64,000 nucleotides of DNA from Escherichia coli (lineage in GTDB: Bacteria; Pseudomonadota; Gammaproteobacteria; Enterobacterales; Enterobacteriaceae). Below are positions 5,199-23,035 of this stretch, piece by piece. Both the position numbers and the translations under genes were made by a program. The stretch is from assembly GCF_024298765.1 (NCBI RefSeq), contig NZ_CP101212.1; one strand, given 5' to 3'. The notes beneath the pieces are model-generated. The model had not been told where the DNA came from. It made no database searches and was given only the letters and a program-made list of their open reading frames with translations. Within the stretch, counting starts at the first letter, position 1. Each line of letters begins with the position of its first letter.

Positions 5199-6158
5199 TT
5201 AAAAATAATACTTCAGACCAGCTGTGGTCATAAAGTTATAGCTTTCAATGCCTGCACCATTTTTGGTGTGATCAGATATATTCAAATTTCTGGAGTACAG
5301 AGAAGTATCACCTTTCTTATTAGTAATACGGTTCCATGTTCCTTCGACATAAACTTTAGCTGCAGGTGTAATATAATAACCAGCATGTAGTGAGACAGAG
5401 TAATAGTTCTGATTATTTACATCGCTACGATAGGTGATCCTTTTCTCAGGGTTGTAATGCTCATCATTATCCGATGCCTTCACCCATCCGCTATATTTGA
5501 AACTCCCCCCGAACTCAAAGCTATCATACCGATAATTACCGGTTAACCCTATATAGGGCATTTTAAAGTGTTGTTTGTAGCCTATAGCTCTTTCACCATC
5601 TGGAAATGATCCCGTTTCATCCCGGAAGCCTCCCTCACTACTATAGATATAAGAGCCTCCTTTTGCTGTAAAGCTATAACGATTTTCCTGGTAACCAGCC
5701 ATAAGACCTAACTGATAGTCTGGTTGATTCAGGAGCCATCCCTTAATATTCAGGTCGAATTCATTAGCAAAATTTAGACGGGTATTCGGATGTTTACTCT
5801 CATCAGTCCAGGTTCCGGGATTGCTCGTATCCAGCCAGTCCCTGTCCACCATATTGCCTCCACGACCAGCTAATGTTGTCCACCCTGAGGCACCGACAGA
5901 TACTCTGGGTAACAGATCCCAGTTAAATGCCCCCTTGACAATTGGCGCATTACTGTATTTCCAGTCCAGCTGGCTGGCTTTGCGCCCTTTTTCTTCAGGC
6001 AGATAAACCCGTTCTTTGGCCTTGCCACTTAAAGTGCCAAAATCAATCTCCGTACTGATTTTCTCCGGTGTAAAAGAAAGCCCAGTATCAGAAGCCAGTG
6101 CAGCAAACGCTACAGGAGCTGAGAGTGCAGTAGCAAGAATCTTTAAGTACATAGACAA
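5199..6158 (-). CDS. ompT: Omptin-family outer-membrane protease (plasmid-borne OmpT)
   Basis: 319 aa with signal peptide and beta-barrel terminal F; omptin-like sequence throughout. Confidence 0.85.
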   Translation of the reverse strand: MSMYLKILATALSAPVAFAALASDTGLSFTPEKISTEIDFGTLSGKAKERVYLPEEKGRKASQLDWKYSNAPIVKGAFNWDLLPRVSVGASGWTTLAGRGGNMVDRDWLDTSNPGTWTDESKHPNTRLNFANEFDLNIKGWLLNQPDYQLGLMAGYQENRYSFTAKGGSYIYSSEGGFRDETGSFPDGERAIGYKQHFKMPYIGLTGNYRYDSFEFGGSFKYSGWVKASDNDEHYNPEKRITYRSDVNNQNYYSVSLHAGYYITPAAKVYVEGTWNRITNKKGDTSLYSRNLNISDHTKNGAGIESYNFMTTAGLKYYF

Positions 6159-7394
6159 GTTAACTCCATTCCACTCGTTTGTTTTTGATAAATATTTTTT
6201 TATTTACTCGTAGTAGTCAACTGAAAAATGCTGTTTTGTTTAACGTTTGTTTACAATGTGGCCGCATGTCGCTTTATTTATTCCCTTTTATGTCAGAATA
6301 TCAGGGGAGTCAGTCAAACCCGGTATGATTACTGCCCCGGTCATCCATGTTCCAGGAAATATCAGGGCATACAGGGTGCTGGTAACTGCGAATAAGGCCC
6401 TGGTCGGACACTTTATGCCGGGAACGTCTGTAACATGGAAACCGGTACCTTCTTCCTGGGTTTATTTTGTTAACTCTTATCTAAAGGGAGACAAAATGGC
6501 CAAATCCTGCGATTATGAAGCAATCAGGGTTTTTATTAGCGTTAATGTCGGCAAATATACCAATAACGCCATTACAGTTAATTATTCAGATAGCGTTTGT
6601 GCGACAAGGCATTACCATTCGACGAAAATAAACTCAGGTGGTTGATATCAGAAATCAACCGTGGCTCCACCTACAAAAAAAGTTGCTGGTTTATAAATCC
6701 CTCCTTTCTGATTAATAAGAAAACTAATAACATATGAGTATAATTACTTGTTCAGATAGGTTAATTATCTTCGTGATTGATATTTATTTGGTTTCAGTAA
6801 AAATGATGTTTTTATTATAAAGTTTATAAATACCAAGTCGGTGGTGTTTATTAGTGTAATGGAGGGGAGTGCGTAAATCGTTACATGTAACACTTCCTTC
6901 CAATAATACTTTATAAATCAATAAATGTATGATTACTTATTTCCTGAAATATCACATATATTGCTATATTTCTTAACGAGATATTCTTATTTTATTGATG
7001 ATTGCATCTCTTTTATTTAATGTAAAGCTTTCTTATTAATCTTCTAATGTATTGCAAAATGGTAGATGCTGAGTAATCAACAGACTTGTATGTAAAGTCA
7101 AGATTAACGTTGCTAAAGCACGCATCAATTTTCTGATAAAAGGATGTGGTTGTTTTTTTCGATAAAAAAAATTCTTGTCTAACCGCTGGTGAAATAAGAT
7201 TATTATTACCCCGGATTAATACTGAGCCTAACAATAGAATACAAAAAAAACAAAATGCTTTAAATAAGGGGAGCACTATAAGTTATCCTCTTTACTTTAT
7301 GCTTACCAACTCATTTTGTTACTTTATAACATAACTCATCTTGCGTTGTAAACAGACTCGTTTTAGTTCCATGCACCTTTTGAGATCGTGACCA

Positions 7395-17499: not shown

Positions 17500-17880
17500 A
17501 ACAGGGAGCCGTTTTCTTGTGCATAGAAACCCCCCAGCTAGGCTGGGGGTTCCGGAAAGCTTTCAGCTTTGAGCCAGTTATTAAAACCCCTTTTGATTTA
17601 TTAAAACACCTTGCGGTCTGGCAACTGCAAGTGTCAAACAAGAAATCAAAAGGGGGTCCCAATGGGGAACGAAAAGAGCTTAGCGCACACCCGATGGAAC
17701 TGTAAATATCACATAGTATTTGCGCCAAAATACCGAAGACAGGTGTTCTACAGAGAGAAGCGTAGAGCAATAGGCTGTATTTTGAGAAAGCTGTGTGAGT
17801 GGAAAAGTGTACGGATTCTGGAAGCTGAATGCTGTGCAGATCATATCCATATGCTACAATGTTTGTCAAAGCTCAGTGAA
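17500..17880 (+). mobile_element. IS200 remnant: left-end hairpin and 3'-truncated tnpA (17662..about 17852)
   Basis: aaaccccccagctaggctgggggtt hairpin; translation MGNEKSLAHTRWNCKYHIVFAPKYRR...ECCADHIHML then divergence. Confidence 0.6.
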
Positions 17881-17920
17881 AATGTCTAATCACTGGCTCA
17901 TTATAAATGTCCATATATTG

Positions 17921-17956
17921 AAAAGGCCGCTGCGAAAATCCCTCCCGCAGCGGCCT
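17921..17956 (-). terminator. Rho-independent terminator-like hairpin downstream of the AbiJ-like gene
   Basis: ggccgctgcg...cgcagcggcc stem followed by a T-run on the minus strand. Confidence 0.5.
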
Positions 17957-17984
17957 CTTTAGCATAACGTCATTATGCGAACCA

Positions 17985-18926
17985 TCACTTAATGTTCTTC
18001 TCGCATTTTAAGAGAAATAGTAAATTTGTAGCAGTAAGATGAAGCATATAGCTTACCAATTCTTCCGGAACCTCTTTAATATCAGCTCCTTGCCCATGAC
18101 CTGCATTTTTGTTTCTGATGGTTGGAATTCCTGTTTCCAGCATTGTTTTCAGACTTGTGAACTGGCTTTGTAAATATGCCGGAATTAAATTTTGACTTAA
18201 ACAGCTATTTATTAGTTTTGATGCTGTATCATTAGGACTATATTTCCAGTTATTCTTATCATGTATTGCTTTCATTATACTTTCAAATGATTTCAGACAA
18301 TCATTTAGACATTCTTTATAACGCTTATGCCTGTAATGCTCATGCGCAGCAAGGAATTCATCATTGGCGCCTTCAAACAAGGGTTCTCCACTTAAAAGAA
18401 TCAGGGTTGGCTTTACGACATCAGCATGAATCAATTGAGAGTCTATCCTTATTATCTCTTCAGATTCAAACTGATAACCAACCCCATGTTCTCTAAACCT
18501 TTCATTTAGTTCAATAACTGCATCTCCAGGACTTTGACTTGTTATGTCTTTGAATTCATAATGGTTTTTCGCAACGTGGCTCACTAGTATCTGGAAGCAT
18601 ATTTCTATGAAATCTAGGCATTTCTCTGTATTTCTCTCTTTAAGGAAAAAGTCGACAAGAGCGTCAAAGTCATTCTTTGCAAATTCCTTCAAAGAAAAAA
18701 CACCATATTCCTTAGAAAGTATCTCATGGATATATGCATATACTTTGTCAGCTTCATTTCTATACGATGTGTAGCGTTCATTAGAAGAGGGGAAGCCGAT
18801 AGAATCAGTTATTATTTTAATAATTTGCACCCTGAGTGCATGTGGAATATTGTTATATTGATATACGTCATTTACTTCGCCACGAATTTTTCTTTGTCTC
18901 TTAGAATAAATATTAATAATTGCCAT
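17985..18926 (-). CDS. HEPN-domain protein, AbiJ-like (putative single-gene abortive-infection/defence protein)
   Basis: 313 aa, visibly AT-rich; C-terminal R-x5-H motif (RNKNAGH) of HEPN type; family assignment is from memory, not a search. Confidence 0.4.
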   Translation of the reverse strand: MAIINIYSKRQRKIRGEVNDVYQYNNIPHALRVQIIKIITDSIGFPSSNERYTSYRNEADKVYAYIHEILSKEYGVFSLKEFAKNDFDALVDFFLKERNTEKCLDFIEICFQILVSHVAKNHYEFKDITSQSPGDAVIELNERFREHGVGYQFESEEIIRIDSQLIHADVVKPTLILLSGEPLFEGANDEFLAAHEHYRHKRYKECLNDCLKSFESIMKAIHDKNNWKYSPNDTASKLINSCLSQNLIPAYLQSQFTSLKTMLETGIPTIRNKNAGHGQGADIKEVPEELVSYMLHLTATNLLFLLKCEKNIK

Positions 18927-19160
18927 GAAATAGCCTCAAGATTTTTTTACATGCTGTTCTGTGATACTTGCTGTTTGGCTCTTTGCACCGCGAAGCGGTT
19001 CGGGGTTCTGTGACACCCGAATTTTACCTCGGTTTCCTTTGTATATAATATCATTGAAGTTATTTGCATTTCTCAGAAATCTTCTCTGGCTTTGATTGCA
19101 ATAGCCGAAAGATAGCGCACACATCGCCGTTGGTCAGTTAGTACGAGGTTTCCGCCAAGT

Positions 19161-20550
19161 TCACCTTTTACCAAAGATGGCCTCAGAGCTTCCCTGAAGC
19201 TTTATCATGGCTTCAAGTAGGTCATCTTCGTTCAGTGAGCGCTGAGATTTGTTGATGCTAGGGGCGTGCCGTCTGCGGGAAGGCTCATCACCAGAACAAG
19301 GTAACGATTGTGAGCGATTATTGTCCCGTTTTCTCTGGACCTGACGGGCAACATCCAACACATGGCCAAGTCTCTTGTTATCTACAATGGCGACGGGATC
19401 AACCTCAGAAAGCCGGTCATAGGTGGAGTAGGGCAGCAGCACGCCATTTAGTCGCAGCTCCTTATGTCCGTCAGGATAATGCCAGACATCAATATACTTG
19501 CCGATGGCTCTTCGACTGTACTCGTTGTCCTCAATCAGATAGAGCATTTTATCGTATTGTACAGTCAGATTTTTTGATACCCGGCGAGGCTCTCGCTAGG
19601 TAAATTCTGCATCAAGGTCATCGTCTAATGCCAGCGGCCGGTGCGCGTTAAAATCATGCAAGGGTTCTTTGGCAAAGCGCCGGTTATAATCCTTCTGCAA
19701 ATGCATTGGCCGCTTCTATTGTACAGATCCCCTTAAGCCTGAGCTCCTTAACGAGTCGGTCCTGAAGTGTCAAATGAGCACGTTCAACGCGGCCTTTTGC
19801 CTGGCTGGTTTCAGCACACAAAGGAGTAATATTAAGGCAGCGCATGGCCCTGGCAAACTGGGTTTCGCCGGGGCCGGTGGTGGCGTGCTTATTATTGACT
19901 CTGAATACGCTGGCTTTATCGCTGTAGAGGATCATCGGTTTACCGTATTTCTCGATATAGCCACGTGTAGCTTCAAAATAGGTAAATGTGGACTCAGATT
20001 TCACAAACAGCAGGTGCATCAGGCGACTGGTGGCATCGTCAACATAGACCAGGGCAGAACAGGGTCGCCCCCGGTTTTCAAACCAGTGGTGGTCGCAGCC
20101 ATCAATTTGTATCAGCTCGCCAGTACAAGGACGCCGGTAACGAGGCTGATGAATTTTCGGTGCGCGTTGTCTGCGGGGAATCCAGAGTCCGGCCTTTATC
20201 ATGAGACGTCGGATGGTTTCCTTTCCAAGGACCAGACCGTGAACTTCCTCCAGCTTTTCCCGCGCTAGCGTGGGGCCAAAATCACGGTAGTGCTCCCGGA
20301 TTATACTGAGTGCCTGATCTGTCAGTGACGCTGGCAACAGACGGTTACCAGTGCGGCCACGACTCTGGTTGTTCATGCCAAGCGGCCCATACTGGCGATA
20401 ACGTTTGAGCAGACGGCTGCAATGACGTGGCGTGATGCCCAGCATTTCGGCAGCCTGTCCAGGACGGATATTGCGATCGATGACATCCTGAAGGATTTTG
20501 AGGCGATTGATTTCTTTCACGGTGAACATTCCGGCGTCATTTATAGCCAT
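19161..20550 (-). pseudogene. DDE (rve-core) transposase with N-terminal HTH, split into two ORFs
   Basis: ORFs 19684..20550 (HTH plus DGCDHHW...YSDKASVF...KGRVER core) and 19161..19547 (C-terminus) separated by a frame break. Confidence 0.5.
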
Positions 20551-20736
20551 AGAAAACTCCTCATCAGGAAAAAGTGAGTCGTTGTCTAGACATAGGGATC
20601 TGAGAAACTATAGCCTGGACATTCCTAATGAGCCACAAATAGACATTAGCATTGAGCCTCTACAATGTTTGTGCGCACAATCTATCTTATGTTAAATAAC
20701 ATTGAATATTAACTTACTTCATGAAGCTTACTGCTT

Positions 20737-21054
20737 CTATTTCCACTTCTTTTTCTTATTAATCGCTCCCCTAATCCACGCATTCATCTGCTCTACAGGC
20801 TCTAAAATATTTTTTCTGAGTACTGAGCACAAACTGCTCCATAAAAAACAGACCACAAGTTTGGGCATGATACTGATGTAGTCACGTTTTATTGTTTTCA
20901 TGAAGCTCTCTGCTATTCCATTACTCACCGGACTCCGCACCGCCGTGTTCTTCGATTTAAGTCCCAACATCCGAGCGAACTGGCGTGTTTCATTAACCCG
21001 GTAGTCAGAGTCAGCGGTCGAAAGACCTCCCAGGTAGCTACTCTGCATACCCAC
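20737..21054 (-). pseudogene. IS2-related orfB 3' fragment
   Basis: [43 protein letters not shown] matches the IS2 InsD region seen intact at 28684..29408. Confidence 0.5.
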
Positions 21055-21186: not shown

Positions 21187-22380
21187 TCAGGACAGGCGGG
21201 TAACTTTCTGTGGCCATGGATCAGGGAATACTCCACCCGACATCCACCACTGAATTTCTTCTTCAGTCAACAAGCAAAGGGATAAGGCATGTGTAAAATC
21301 ATTAACTTCAGTGGCATTGCCAATGATAGTCAACTGACAGCAGCGATCGCCAAATCGCCCAGAGGCTGTGTCGATGTGTCGCTGTAGCGCTGAACGTTCT
21401 TCACGAGTTAAATTATTGTCAGTATGTTCCAGTACTCCAGCTTTCCAGTAGCCAATGAGCGCCAGACTGATGCTTCCTGCTGACTGATTCCAGAGCAGGG
21501 CAAGATCATCTCTCCCGGGGAGCCAAAAAAAACCTTTACTGCGATAAACGCCCATGCCCATAAAGCGGTGACAGGTATCCCATAATCTTTGCGGATGGAA
21601 TGGCCTGTCGTCCCTGATGACGCGCCATATAAGTTCCTCATTGTTGCACGGAGTATCCATGTTTCCTACAAGTGCTTCCAGTTCACTGATGAGTAACTCA
21701 ACACGGTCAAAATTGTAGTCCGGGATCGCCAGTAATGTGCTCAGTTCAATATTTCCCCATGATACCGCGAGCACATCCACGGAGGGGTTAAGTGGGTGTA
21801 TGGCTTTTGCCACAGCGGAGATAATGTCAAAGGGCAGGCGGTCATTTCTGGTCAGCAGCAGCCTGTTGCAGAACATGATTTGCTCGGCCAGCAAATTCTC
21901 CAGGCCGCGTTTGTTATGCCGGAGATTTTCCTGAAGAGTGGGGATCAGTTTTTTCCCATCATTGTAATCTTCATGGAGCATGACAGTATCAACGAGTGTT
22001 AAAAACGCCTTCAGGCGTACACGTGAATGGCGACGCAGGTATTTGACCAGAGGAAGCGGATGACTGCTTCCGGAGGTTTCAATCAGCATCACATCCGGCT
22101 TGTTGTGATCAAGCAGGTGGTTAATTGCGAGATCCATCTTTTTGAGGCCTGCGGGGCTGCTGATGCTGTCTGCGGTGATACTTACGAAATTATTGTCTTT
22201 TGCATCTACAATATCTGTGTTGGCGATCAGCACGCCGTCCACATCCAGTTCGCTCATGTCATTGACTATGACAGAGACTGAAAGCTGTTTTTCGTGTGCC
22301 TGTATGAGCAGGTTTTTCAGCAGAGTGGTTTTCCCTGCGCCGAGGAAGCCATTGAGAATGATGACAGATGTTGTTTCCAT
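21187..22380 (-). CDS. CobW/COG0523 G3E-family P-loop GTPase (putative metallochaperone), divergent
   Basis: GFLGAGKTTLL Walker A, IETSG motif, CobW-like C-terminal domain; likely start at METTSV (22380) rather than 22494. Confidence 0.7.
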   Translation of the reverse strand: METTSVIILNGFLGAGKTTLLKNLLIQAHEKQLSVSVIVNDMSELDVDGVLIANTDIVDAKDNNFVSITADSISSPAGLKKMDLAINHLLDHNKPDVMLIETSGSSHPLPLVKYLRRHSRVRLKAFLTLVDTVMLHEDYNDGKKLIPTLQENLRHNKRGLENLLAEQIMFCNRLLLTRNDRLPFDIISAVAKAIHPLNPSVDVLAVSWGNIELSTLLAIPDYNFDRVELLISELEALVGNMDTPCNNEELIWRVIRDDRPFHPQRLWDTCHRFMGMGVYRSKGFFWLPGRDDLALLWNQSAGSISLALIGYWKAGVLEHTDNNLTREERSALQRHIDTASGRFGDRCCQLTIIGNATEVNDFTHALSLCLLTEEEIQWWMSGGVFPDPWPQKVTRLS

Positions 22381-23035
22381 ATCAGCAGTACACCAGTTAG
22401 TTAGCGAGGAAGGCGCTTGGTGGTACAAAGAGCATCCGGATTGAATCGCATAACGTCGACGGGAGTTGTTGTCGTTTTTCCTGTGAGGTCTCAACCTGCC
22501 ACAGAACGCACCGGATTTATTGGTATTTAGTCTCCATCAGCATAATTATCACCATTTTTATCTCCGGGGGAAGATTTGTTCTGAACAGGAGTGGGAGGTG
22601 TGACCTCCTGAAAGTAATTACAGATTGCTAGTTGTTGTATTTTTATTCGAATATGTCTCTTCGTATCAGTGATAGCACCTAGATAAAGTATATTCCGGGA
22701 GCGTTATCTGTTCTAGATATCAGAGAGTCAGTCATTTGTAAAAAAGAGAGCTGCATCATTCTATTTTTCCTGTCTATTCACCCTGTTGTCGTATCTAAAA
22801 GACATCCGTTCCGAGGATGTCGGGCACCCGTTCTGTACTAAGATACATAGCTTTTGGGTCTGCACTATTTGGAACCGACAGAAGTCTGTCTGTGATATCC
22901 GCATTTTTCTGTGTGCGATATATTCCGAAAAACTTCAAACCACTTAAAAGAGGTGTTTCCGGAGGATAAGTTCGACCAGGGAATAGTGTTTCCTGGTAAG
23001 TGTGGCGGAGCCAGTTCACCAGGAGTATCTTTCTT

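Follow-up and report, generated by a model that had tools for sequence, protein, structure and literature searches.

A predicted AbiJ-NTD4/HEPN defence gene as the passenger of a decayed, dif-targeting IS1202-family element on a ColV-type plasmid

What kind of protein is encoded by a solitary, A+T-rich gene lying between two broken transposase genes on an Escherichia coli virulence plasmid, and in what setting does it travel? The question is raised by a stretch of 64,000 nucleotides (nt) from contig NZ_CP101212.1 (hereafter the window), whose host replicon is a ColV/ColBM-type IncF plasmid, with etsABC-like efflux genes just upstream of the region concerned. On its minus strand, positions 17985–18926 hold an open reading frame (ORF) of 313 amino acids (aa) that is identical to RefSeq WP_000974762.1 and belongs to the STM4504/CBY_0614 family, in which an AbiJ-NTD4 domain is joined to an AbiJ-type HEPN domain. 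Judged from its sequence profiles, its modelled structure and analogy with related systems, the product is probably a self-contained, single-polypeptide defence protein of the abortive-infection type. A first-pass annotation of the raw sequence had placed the gene in insertion sequence (IS) debris; our analysis shows instead that a decayed, dif-targeting transporter IS (tIS) of the IS1202 family carries it as a passenger cassette. The AbiJ/HEPN identity proposed in that annotation is right but ordinary to a specialist, and the new part is the swappable passenger and the sharing of its slot with filamentous prophages.

Family, fold and signature motif of the protein

The gene starts with ATG, 8 nt downstream of a GAGG ribosome-binding site (18934–18937). 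Its G+C fraction of 0.345 is below those of the window (0.492) and of the remaining IS sequence (0.499), bearing out the low G+C content noted at first pass; along the DNA, the profile runs at 0.34–0.39 over 17800–19200, between flanks of 0.45–0.55. The product scores 431.7 bits with the NCBIfam model NF046078 (STM4504/CBY_0614), whose cut-off is 150 (E = 1.1e-129; residues 23–306, profile positions 1–280 of 281). A Pfam search, proposed as a check in the first-pass annotation, returned an N-terminal AbiJ_NTD4 domain (PF18863; residues 5–174, nt 18405–18914, minus strand; model positions 1–150 of 152; E = 2.6e-24) and a C-terminal HEPN-fold domain of the DUF7014 (PF22809)/Abi_C type (residues 182–312, nt 17991–18383, minus strand; E = 8.8e-63 for DUF7014). 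The Pfam release scanned with the window protein did not list Abi_C itself; Abi_C (PF14355) together with AbiJ_NTD4 comes from the precomputed Pfam annotation of the homologs listed, including the 99%-identical P0001. It is through this Abi_C domain only that the protein appears, at the level of sequence profiles, to be related to the AbiJ of Lactococcus lactis.

A PHROG profile of unknown function, phrog_20794, also matches (2e-139), and the STM4504/CBY_0614 family is therefore present in phage genomes as well. Relatives form 2634 clusters at 50% identity (E ≤ 1e-3), a large family in which the full length is retained, and our alignment comprises 147 relatives with 37–73% identity to the query. 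These matches assign the protein to a known predicted family, and databases already annotate it as such: in some RefSeq records the identical gene is an 'abortive infection family protein' or an 'AbiJ-NTD4 domain-containing protein'.

The AlphaFold2 (AF2) model of the protein, with a predicted local distance difference test score (pLDDT) of 91.2, contains the four-helix up-down bundle of the HEPN superfamily, and Foldseek recovered HEPN at a probability of 0.98–1.0. Structural matches include AbiA (10.2), LsoA (9.2), HepT-type toxins, Csm6, RnlA and HepS. Sequence searches of the PDB with the protein and with the 147-sequence family profile gave no meaningful match, so that the HEPN relation is visible by fold alone. 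Taken with the NF046078 and Pfam matches, the fold agrees with the AbiJ/HEPN identity read earlier from the raw letters.

An R-x5-H motif near the C-terminus, RNKNAGH, had been singled out at first pass. This segment (R271-N-K-N-A-G-H277; 18096–18116, minus strand) is the RNx4H/Rx5H signature of HEPN domains and is near-invariant in the family: R271 is kept in 145, N272 in 144 and H277 in 146 of the 147 homologs, the Rx5H spacing in 142, and each of G278 and G280 in 145. A second R.{4,6}H is present elsewhere in the 313-aa protein, so that RNKNAGH by itself is not significant, and its weight rests on this conservation. In the model, the RNx4H loop lies between helices 250–265 and 288–311, the third and fourth core helices, which is where HEPN active sites are located in the published description (PMC3710099). 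The motif also bears on an alternative in which the HEPN domain binds nucleotides or other ligands or serves as a scaffold, like sacsin, MtlR or the C-terminal domain of KNTase, and acts in regulation with no RNA cleavage. We regard this as highly unlikely, given a full RN....H with a polar residue after the arginine, as is typical of catalytic HEPNs, and conserved at ~99% along with the following GxG; in non-catalytic HEPN families, either the R or the H is usually missing (table in PMC3710099).

The AbiJ_NTD4 domain is predicted to be helical with one beta-hairpin, has no convincing solved structural relative, and includes the near-invariant residues N141, R143, G150 and H167. A second conserved pair, R160-x6-H167 (RIDSQLIH; R 84%, H 98%; 18426–18449, minus strand), stands where the last helix of this domain begins. 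It prompted the idea of tandem HEPN domains, with a cryptic copy in the N-terminal half, which we provisionally rejected on aligning the N- and C-terminal profiles with hhalign (probability 0.4%).

Proposed action of the protein

How might such a protein act alone? The effector would be the C-terminal HEPN domain. As characterised HEPN nucleases suggest by analogy, it may dimerise so as to bring two RNx4H motifs together in one metal-independent RNase site, which would cut host and/or phage RNA (tRNA, mRNA or rRNA; possibly tRNA), stopping translation and aborting the infection. The AbiJ-NTD4 domain would keep this putative nuclease inactive while the cell is uninfected and free it once a phage component is sensed, a form of auto-inhibition that would make an antitoxin gene unnecessary. 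For this sensor/inhibitor role of the N-terminal domain we draw on the 2013 proposal and on characterised single-protein HEPN defences, of which DARNA and HepS cut tRNA on sensing phage SSB (single-stranded DNA-binding protein) on single-stranded DNA (ssDNA) or the phage tail tip (PMC13043305).

The genetic layout fits a protein that works by itself, and the first-pass statement that no partner gene adjoins it was accurate. The 1002-bp cassette has one ORF and no room for a second; neither it nor the sequence upstream contains a significant tandem repeat or an Rfam antitoxin RNA of the kind expected for a type III antitoxin. Homologs in integron or IS contexts likewise had no partner gene. The locus thus has neither the adjacent antitoxin gene nor the repeat RNA of a type II or III toxin–antitoxin system.

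Comparison with known systems places the protein more closely. The AbiJ-NTD4 + AbiJ-HEPN protein CBY_0614 of Clostridium butyricum (Anantharaman et al. 2013, PMC3710099) has the same two-domain architecture, length and RNx4H motif; we see no protein-level difference between its family and the window protein, and the family's function is itself a computational prediction. Lactococcal AbiJ (Abi-859) also has a C-terminal Abi_C/AbiJ-type HEPN domain, and its one gene suffices for phage resistance (PMC11381338; PMC13064643), with escape mutants mapping to a phage ssDNA-annealing protein (PMC13064643); the N-terminus, however, varies among AbiJ-type proteins. Taranis, a mobile cassette of the Vibrio cholerae superintegron, is likewise a single-gene defence with an Abi_C-type HEPN domain, and protects V. 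cholerae from phages (bioRxiv 10.1101/2024.07.02.601686), but it is a distinct protein with an AbiJ_NTD5-like rather than an NTD4 N-terminus. DARNA (PD-T7-3) and HepS differ in domain order (HEPN is N-terminal in DARNA), have unrelated sensors and share no detectable sequence similarity with the window protein, so the analogy with them is one of mechanism only.

Several points weigh against a defence nuclease of this kind. PADLOC, another check proposed at first pass, gave only a candidate single-gene family, PDC-S32, with a partial match (4e-9; residues 11–226), and at E ≤ 1 neither its AbiJ model nor any validated system matched. The check by structure prediction bore out the fold and left the active site as a prediction: loop 270–275, with a pLDDT below 50, is the sole low-confidence segment of the model, and the catalytic geometry, in which the motifs would face each other at a dimer interface, is therefore predicted. 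Some HEPN domains are non-catalytic. Our literature search turned up neither an experiment on an AbiJ-NTD4 protein nor functional studies of PDC-S32, STM4504 or DUF7014. No clear sigma-70 promoter precedes the gene, the best matches reaching 8/12, and its high conservation across ColV plasmids could reflect hitch-hiking with the plasmid.

The carrier element and its passenger slot

Repeat analysis and alignment delimit an element of 2801 bp at 17864–20664, which comprises both the gene and the adjacent transposase pseudogene of the ISNCY group; the description of the flanks as IS debris does not hold on this side. The right inverted repeat (17864–17913) has the tip TGT and the left one (20616–20664) the tip ACA; both are ~50 nt long and imperfect, and each holds two GCTCAnTnnAAATGTC sub-repeats. 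A 5-bp target-site duplication, ATGTT, flanks the element at 17859–17863 and 20665–20669, the right copy doubling as the spacer to a plasmid dif-like XerC/D site on the plus strand (20670–20697; TGTGCGCACAA-TCTATC-TTATGTTAAAT, in full TGTGCGCACAATCTATCTTATGTTAAAT), which was the target of the IS. This site agrees with E. coli dif at all 11 positions of the XerD arm and 9 of 11 of the XerC arm, and the IS's left end at 20664 lies 5 bp from the XerC arm.

The IS1202-family (ISNCY) DDE transposase gene occupies 19161–20550 on the minus strand and is frameshifted. Its two parts, 19684–20550 and 19161–19547, are halves of one gene, the former matching NF033594 at 3e-114, and the NCBI Prokaryotic Genome Annotation Pipeline (PGAP) labels it 'frameshifted; internal stop'. 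The transposase is intact, at 465 aa, in pColV-PU1 (L005) and in the copy that E. coli 23AR0885 (L015) has at its chromosomal dif. This complete element is bounded by ATACT, perfectly duplicated, and stands 5 bp from an exact dif; a further chromosome (L003) has an exact dif in the same position. Relative to the intact copy, an 11-nt deletion near 19691, among other changes, breaks the transposase of the ColV copy, and the passenger proteins of the window and 23AR0885 differ by one substitution, V291A. The ColV copy is thus a decayed relative of the 23AR0885 element.

In all, the element shows the hallmarks published for the dif-targeting subgroup of IS1202 (PMC10132070): a DDE transposase, TGT/ACA tips, imperfect repeats with an extra internal binding site, a 5-bp duplication and the fixed spacing from dif. 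Some members of the family, the 'transporter' ISs tISKpn21 and tISKpn65, carry an extra ORF of unknown function (PMC10132070; bioRxiv 10.1101/2022.12.17.520857). With this ISAba32/ISAjo2 subgroup the window element shares the tips, the sub-terminal transposase-binding repeats, the 5-bp duplication, a passenger ORF and insertion 5 bp from the XerC arm with the left end facing the dif-like site. The published passengers of tISKpn21 and tISKpn65 are 'hypothetical' and have no Pfam match, whereas the passenger here is an AbiJ-type HEPN gene; the window element also differs in that its slot is polymorphic for defence-like genes and includes a filamentous-phage-like attachment hairpin. The carrier inserts at dif-like sites, 5 bp away from their XerC arm; on the ColV plasmid, where its transposase is decayed, the passenger is now fixed.

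The passenger cassette itself (17985–18986, minus strand; 1002 bp; G+C 0.347) consists of the ORF and 60 bp of 5′ sequence with the GAGG. Its boundaries, 17984|17985 and 18986|18987, fall on the same nucleotides in related copies that carry other cargo (slot coordinates L003, 1606–3000; L005, 1633–2819; L006, 2062–3248; L007, 2591–4018). A SIR2-family gene (PADLOC PDC-S25, 2e-82; ThsA/LmuA-like) fills the slot in many chromosomes next to dif (e.g. L003), a PDC-M50A gene with a ThsB-like TIR gene (2e-48) in two plasmids, one from Shigella and one from E. coli, and three small genes (ECs_2282 zinc-binding, DUF8453, with a PDC-M14A match at 2e-8) in pColV-PU1, an Enterobacter plasmid and others. 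The pColV-PU1 copy occupies the same plasmid site as the window element. The spacer between the transposase stop codon and the cassette (18987–19160, minus strand) is common to all cargo variants, at 81–100% identity. Window positions 17864–19160 are 98–100% identical to the 23AR0885 copy (99.8–100% over cassette and spacer), whereas the transposase is only 85–87% identical to that copy and ~98% identical to that of a SIR2-carrying one. This mosaicism implies that cassettes have moved between backbones. By analogy, the company kept in this identical slot (SIR2, PDC-M50A with TIR, PDC-M14A-like), and the Aga-like restriction endonuclease (REase) of prophage slots described below, lend support to a defence role.

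Downstream of the gene, a terminator-like hairpin with a 17-bp G+C-rich stem followed by UUUUC (17921–17959, minus strand) folds at −36 kcal/mol (z = −5; none of 200 shuffles was as stable), although a simple terminator scan missed it. A hairpin belonging to the gene had been proposed; it is indeed strong, but it is common to copies with unrelated cargo and so belongs to the slot. We also rejected its assignment to an IS200 end, as the IS200 remnant stops near 17856 and the region of the hairpin also occurs in contexts that have no IS200. One nucleotide past the stop codon begins an internal dif-like sequence, GGTTCGCATAA-TGACG-TTATGCTAAAG (17957–17983, minus strand), which is conserved beside every cargo type. 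A pdif-like module would have inverted XerC/D sites on both sides, and we rejected this idea: the upstream boundary, ACCGCGAAGCGGTTCG..., has no credible XerD arm, and the only dif-like sequence is the downstream one.

The decay of the carrier bears on whether the gene is active in this plasmid. It might be a silent or inert hitch-hiker, an intact ORF that lacks its own promoter inside a dead IS, kept only because ColV plasmids are young and clonal. The transposase gene upstream is a pseudogene, the promoter matches are weak, as given above, and the spacer offers only weak candidates, such as an extended −10-like TGATATTAT near 19045–19053. The region is 100% identical in many ColV/ColBM-type plasmids; the unit is at least 99% identical in ~375 genomes, a divergence too low to show selection within ColV, and the exact unit occurs in ~7% of complete E. 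coli genomes. Some ColV-like plasmids (H62–H67 and H107–H112) match only 19099–20700 of the window (99.9% identity); they are deletion variants that keep the transposase pseudogene and have lost the AbiJ-like cassette and the left end. Even so, we think a mere passenger unlikely, as the ORF, ribosome-binding site and catalytic motif are all intact, the intact tIS at a chromosomal dif encodes the same protein with its one substitution, and the upstream spacer is conserved in all cargo types, as expected of a sequence that drives the slot; read-through from the transposase promoter could also provide expression.

The slot in prophages, chromosomes and integrons

Does the slot occur outside this IS? 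The 71 bp past the stop codon (17914–17984) and the 173 bp upstream of 18988 also occur, without the AbiJ-like gene, beside hipA in E. coli chromosomes; hipA adjoins dif, and in L003 an exact dif (GGTGCGCATAATGTATATTATGTTAAAT) stands at the far end of the homologous unit. The 71 bp are also ~93% identical to the ends of filamentous prophages integrated at dif in E. coli and Salmonella (L002, 2501–2572; L004, 8001–8072; L009, 6931–7030), which encode a II/X-family replication protein, Zot and a secretin. They consist of the dif-like GGTTCGCA(T/C)AA-TGACG-TTATGCTAAAG followed by the hairpin; in the prophages they come after the last cargo gene and run directly into the hybrid dif junction. Cargo in the prophage slot is either a homolog from the STM4504 family, with 60% identity of the protein in Salmonella and 69% identity of the nucleotides in E. 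coli, or another gene, such as one for an Aga helical-REase-like protein. Two inverted dif-like half-sites flank a hairpin, an arrangement in which we see a likeness to the attachment site of CTX-type phages, a folded single strand.

A third setting is the superintegron on chromosome 2 of V. cholerae, where a 59%-identical homolog forms a single-gene cassette (L012–L014; gene 6001–6930). In one of these loci (L013), the homolog stands beside a cassette encoding a DUF4145 (HEPN-family) protein, near the integron integrase. The family is therefore mobile as a module of one gene, on three cassette platforms that are unrelated to each other, IS, filamentous prophage and integron, and this is the best indirect evidence that the protein works alone and serves in defence.

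The same platforms can be read differently, with the protein serving the mobile element and phage defence being at most a side effect. It might stabilise or promote the IS, prophage or plasmid, for example by killing cells that have lost it or by excluding competitors from the same dif/Xer site. The mobile platforms that carry the gene always use or target dif (tIS, the end of filamentous prophages by the attachment hairpin, integron), the gene lies in the repressor-side operon in prophages, and HEPN toxins are common in toxin–antitoxin systems, among them the structural matches 5yep, 7ae2 and 8xdj. Classical addiction would need an unstable partner, however, and the cassette contains neither a gene nor an RNA for an antitoxin; the other genes that occupy the slot (SIR2, TIR/ThsB-like, REase-like) encode effectors typical of anti-phage defence, and related Abi_C proteins, cloned alone, give phage resistance. 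We consider service to the carrier improbable on this balance, and continue to favour a protein acting chiefly in phage defence.

The architecture of the slot raises a further possibility, which we advance tentatively and think rather doubtful: it may be a dedicated, integron-like platform for exchanging cassettes of single-gene or small defence systems by site-specific recombination, for example through XerCD. XerCD would act on the internal dif-like site and the hairpin, the AbiJ-NTD4/HEPN gene would be one circulating cassette, and the filamentous-prophage slot beside the attachment hairpin would be an equivalent slot; ordinary homologous recombination would be the alternative. The pdif modules of Acinetobacter and the dif-integrating phages of CTX type likewise have cargo directly beside XerC/D-like half-sites, whereas the window cassette is dif-like on one side only, with a 5-nt centre, and Xer-mediated exchange is a candidate here. 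Neither a swappable defence-like passenger of such elements nor its sharing with filamentous prophage ends came up in our literature searches or in the two IS1202 studies (PMC10132070; bioRxiv 10.1101/2022.12.17.520857).

We regard this context as a more useful lead than the gene itself, a moderate but testable one. The IS1202-family tIS passengers that were published as 'hypothetical' prove here to be interchangeable defence-like genes (HEPN, SIR2, TIR and REase-like) delivered to dif or dif-like sites, and they have a module in common with dif-integrating filamentous prophages. The chromosome terminus and the Xer sites of plasmids would then form a hotspot for defence genes with its own delivery vehicle. 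For the gene itself, the interest is twofold. The ColV/ColBM plasmids, widespread virulence plasmids of avian and extraintestinal pathogenic E. coli, encode a predicted abortive-infection nuclease that consists of one protein, which is relevant to phage therapy of their host strains; and the gene offers an easy entry to first biochemistry on the AbiJ-NTD4 subfamily, whose sensor domain is without a known structural relative.

The surroundings of the element record further insertions. An IS200C remnant abuts it from outside (17529–17856, plus strand), composed of the 5′ untranslated region (5′UTR) with the small RNA STnc490 (17529–17652) and a truncated tnpA (~17662–17856). The ORF at 17611–17889 (plus strand) matches positions 2–62 of 126 of the IS200 transposase profile, and PGAP annotates an IS200C lacking its C-terminus; the first-pass location of the gene between a truncated IS200 and a decayed DDE transposase was thus accurate. 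RefSeq describes the identical stretch of pAPEC-O1-ColBM in the same terms, with an IS200C missing its C-terminus and an ISNCY transposase that is 'frameshifted; internal stop'. Within the remnant, the Rfam family STnc490, an Hfq-binding IS200 5′UTR RNA, is intact (17529–17652, plus strand; 135 bits, E = 2e-28).

The 5 nt to the left of the target-site duplication (CTACA, 17854–17858) equal the tip of an IS left end, and the element in pColV-PU1 has a diverged ISNCY fragment on its left (L005, ~579–1026 and 1501–1510). Together these suggest successive IS insertions stacked at one 5-bp spacer beside the dif-like site. On the other side, just past the dif-like site, lies a fragment of an IS2/IS3-family transposase gene (20737–21054, minus strand), and beyond it a CobW/ZigA-like GTPase gene (21187–22494, minus strand), a 435-aa ORF given as ~397 aa in RefSeq.

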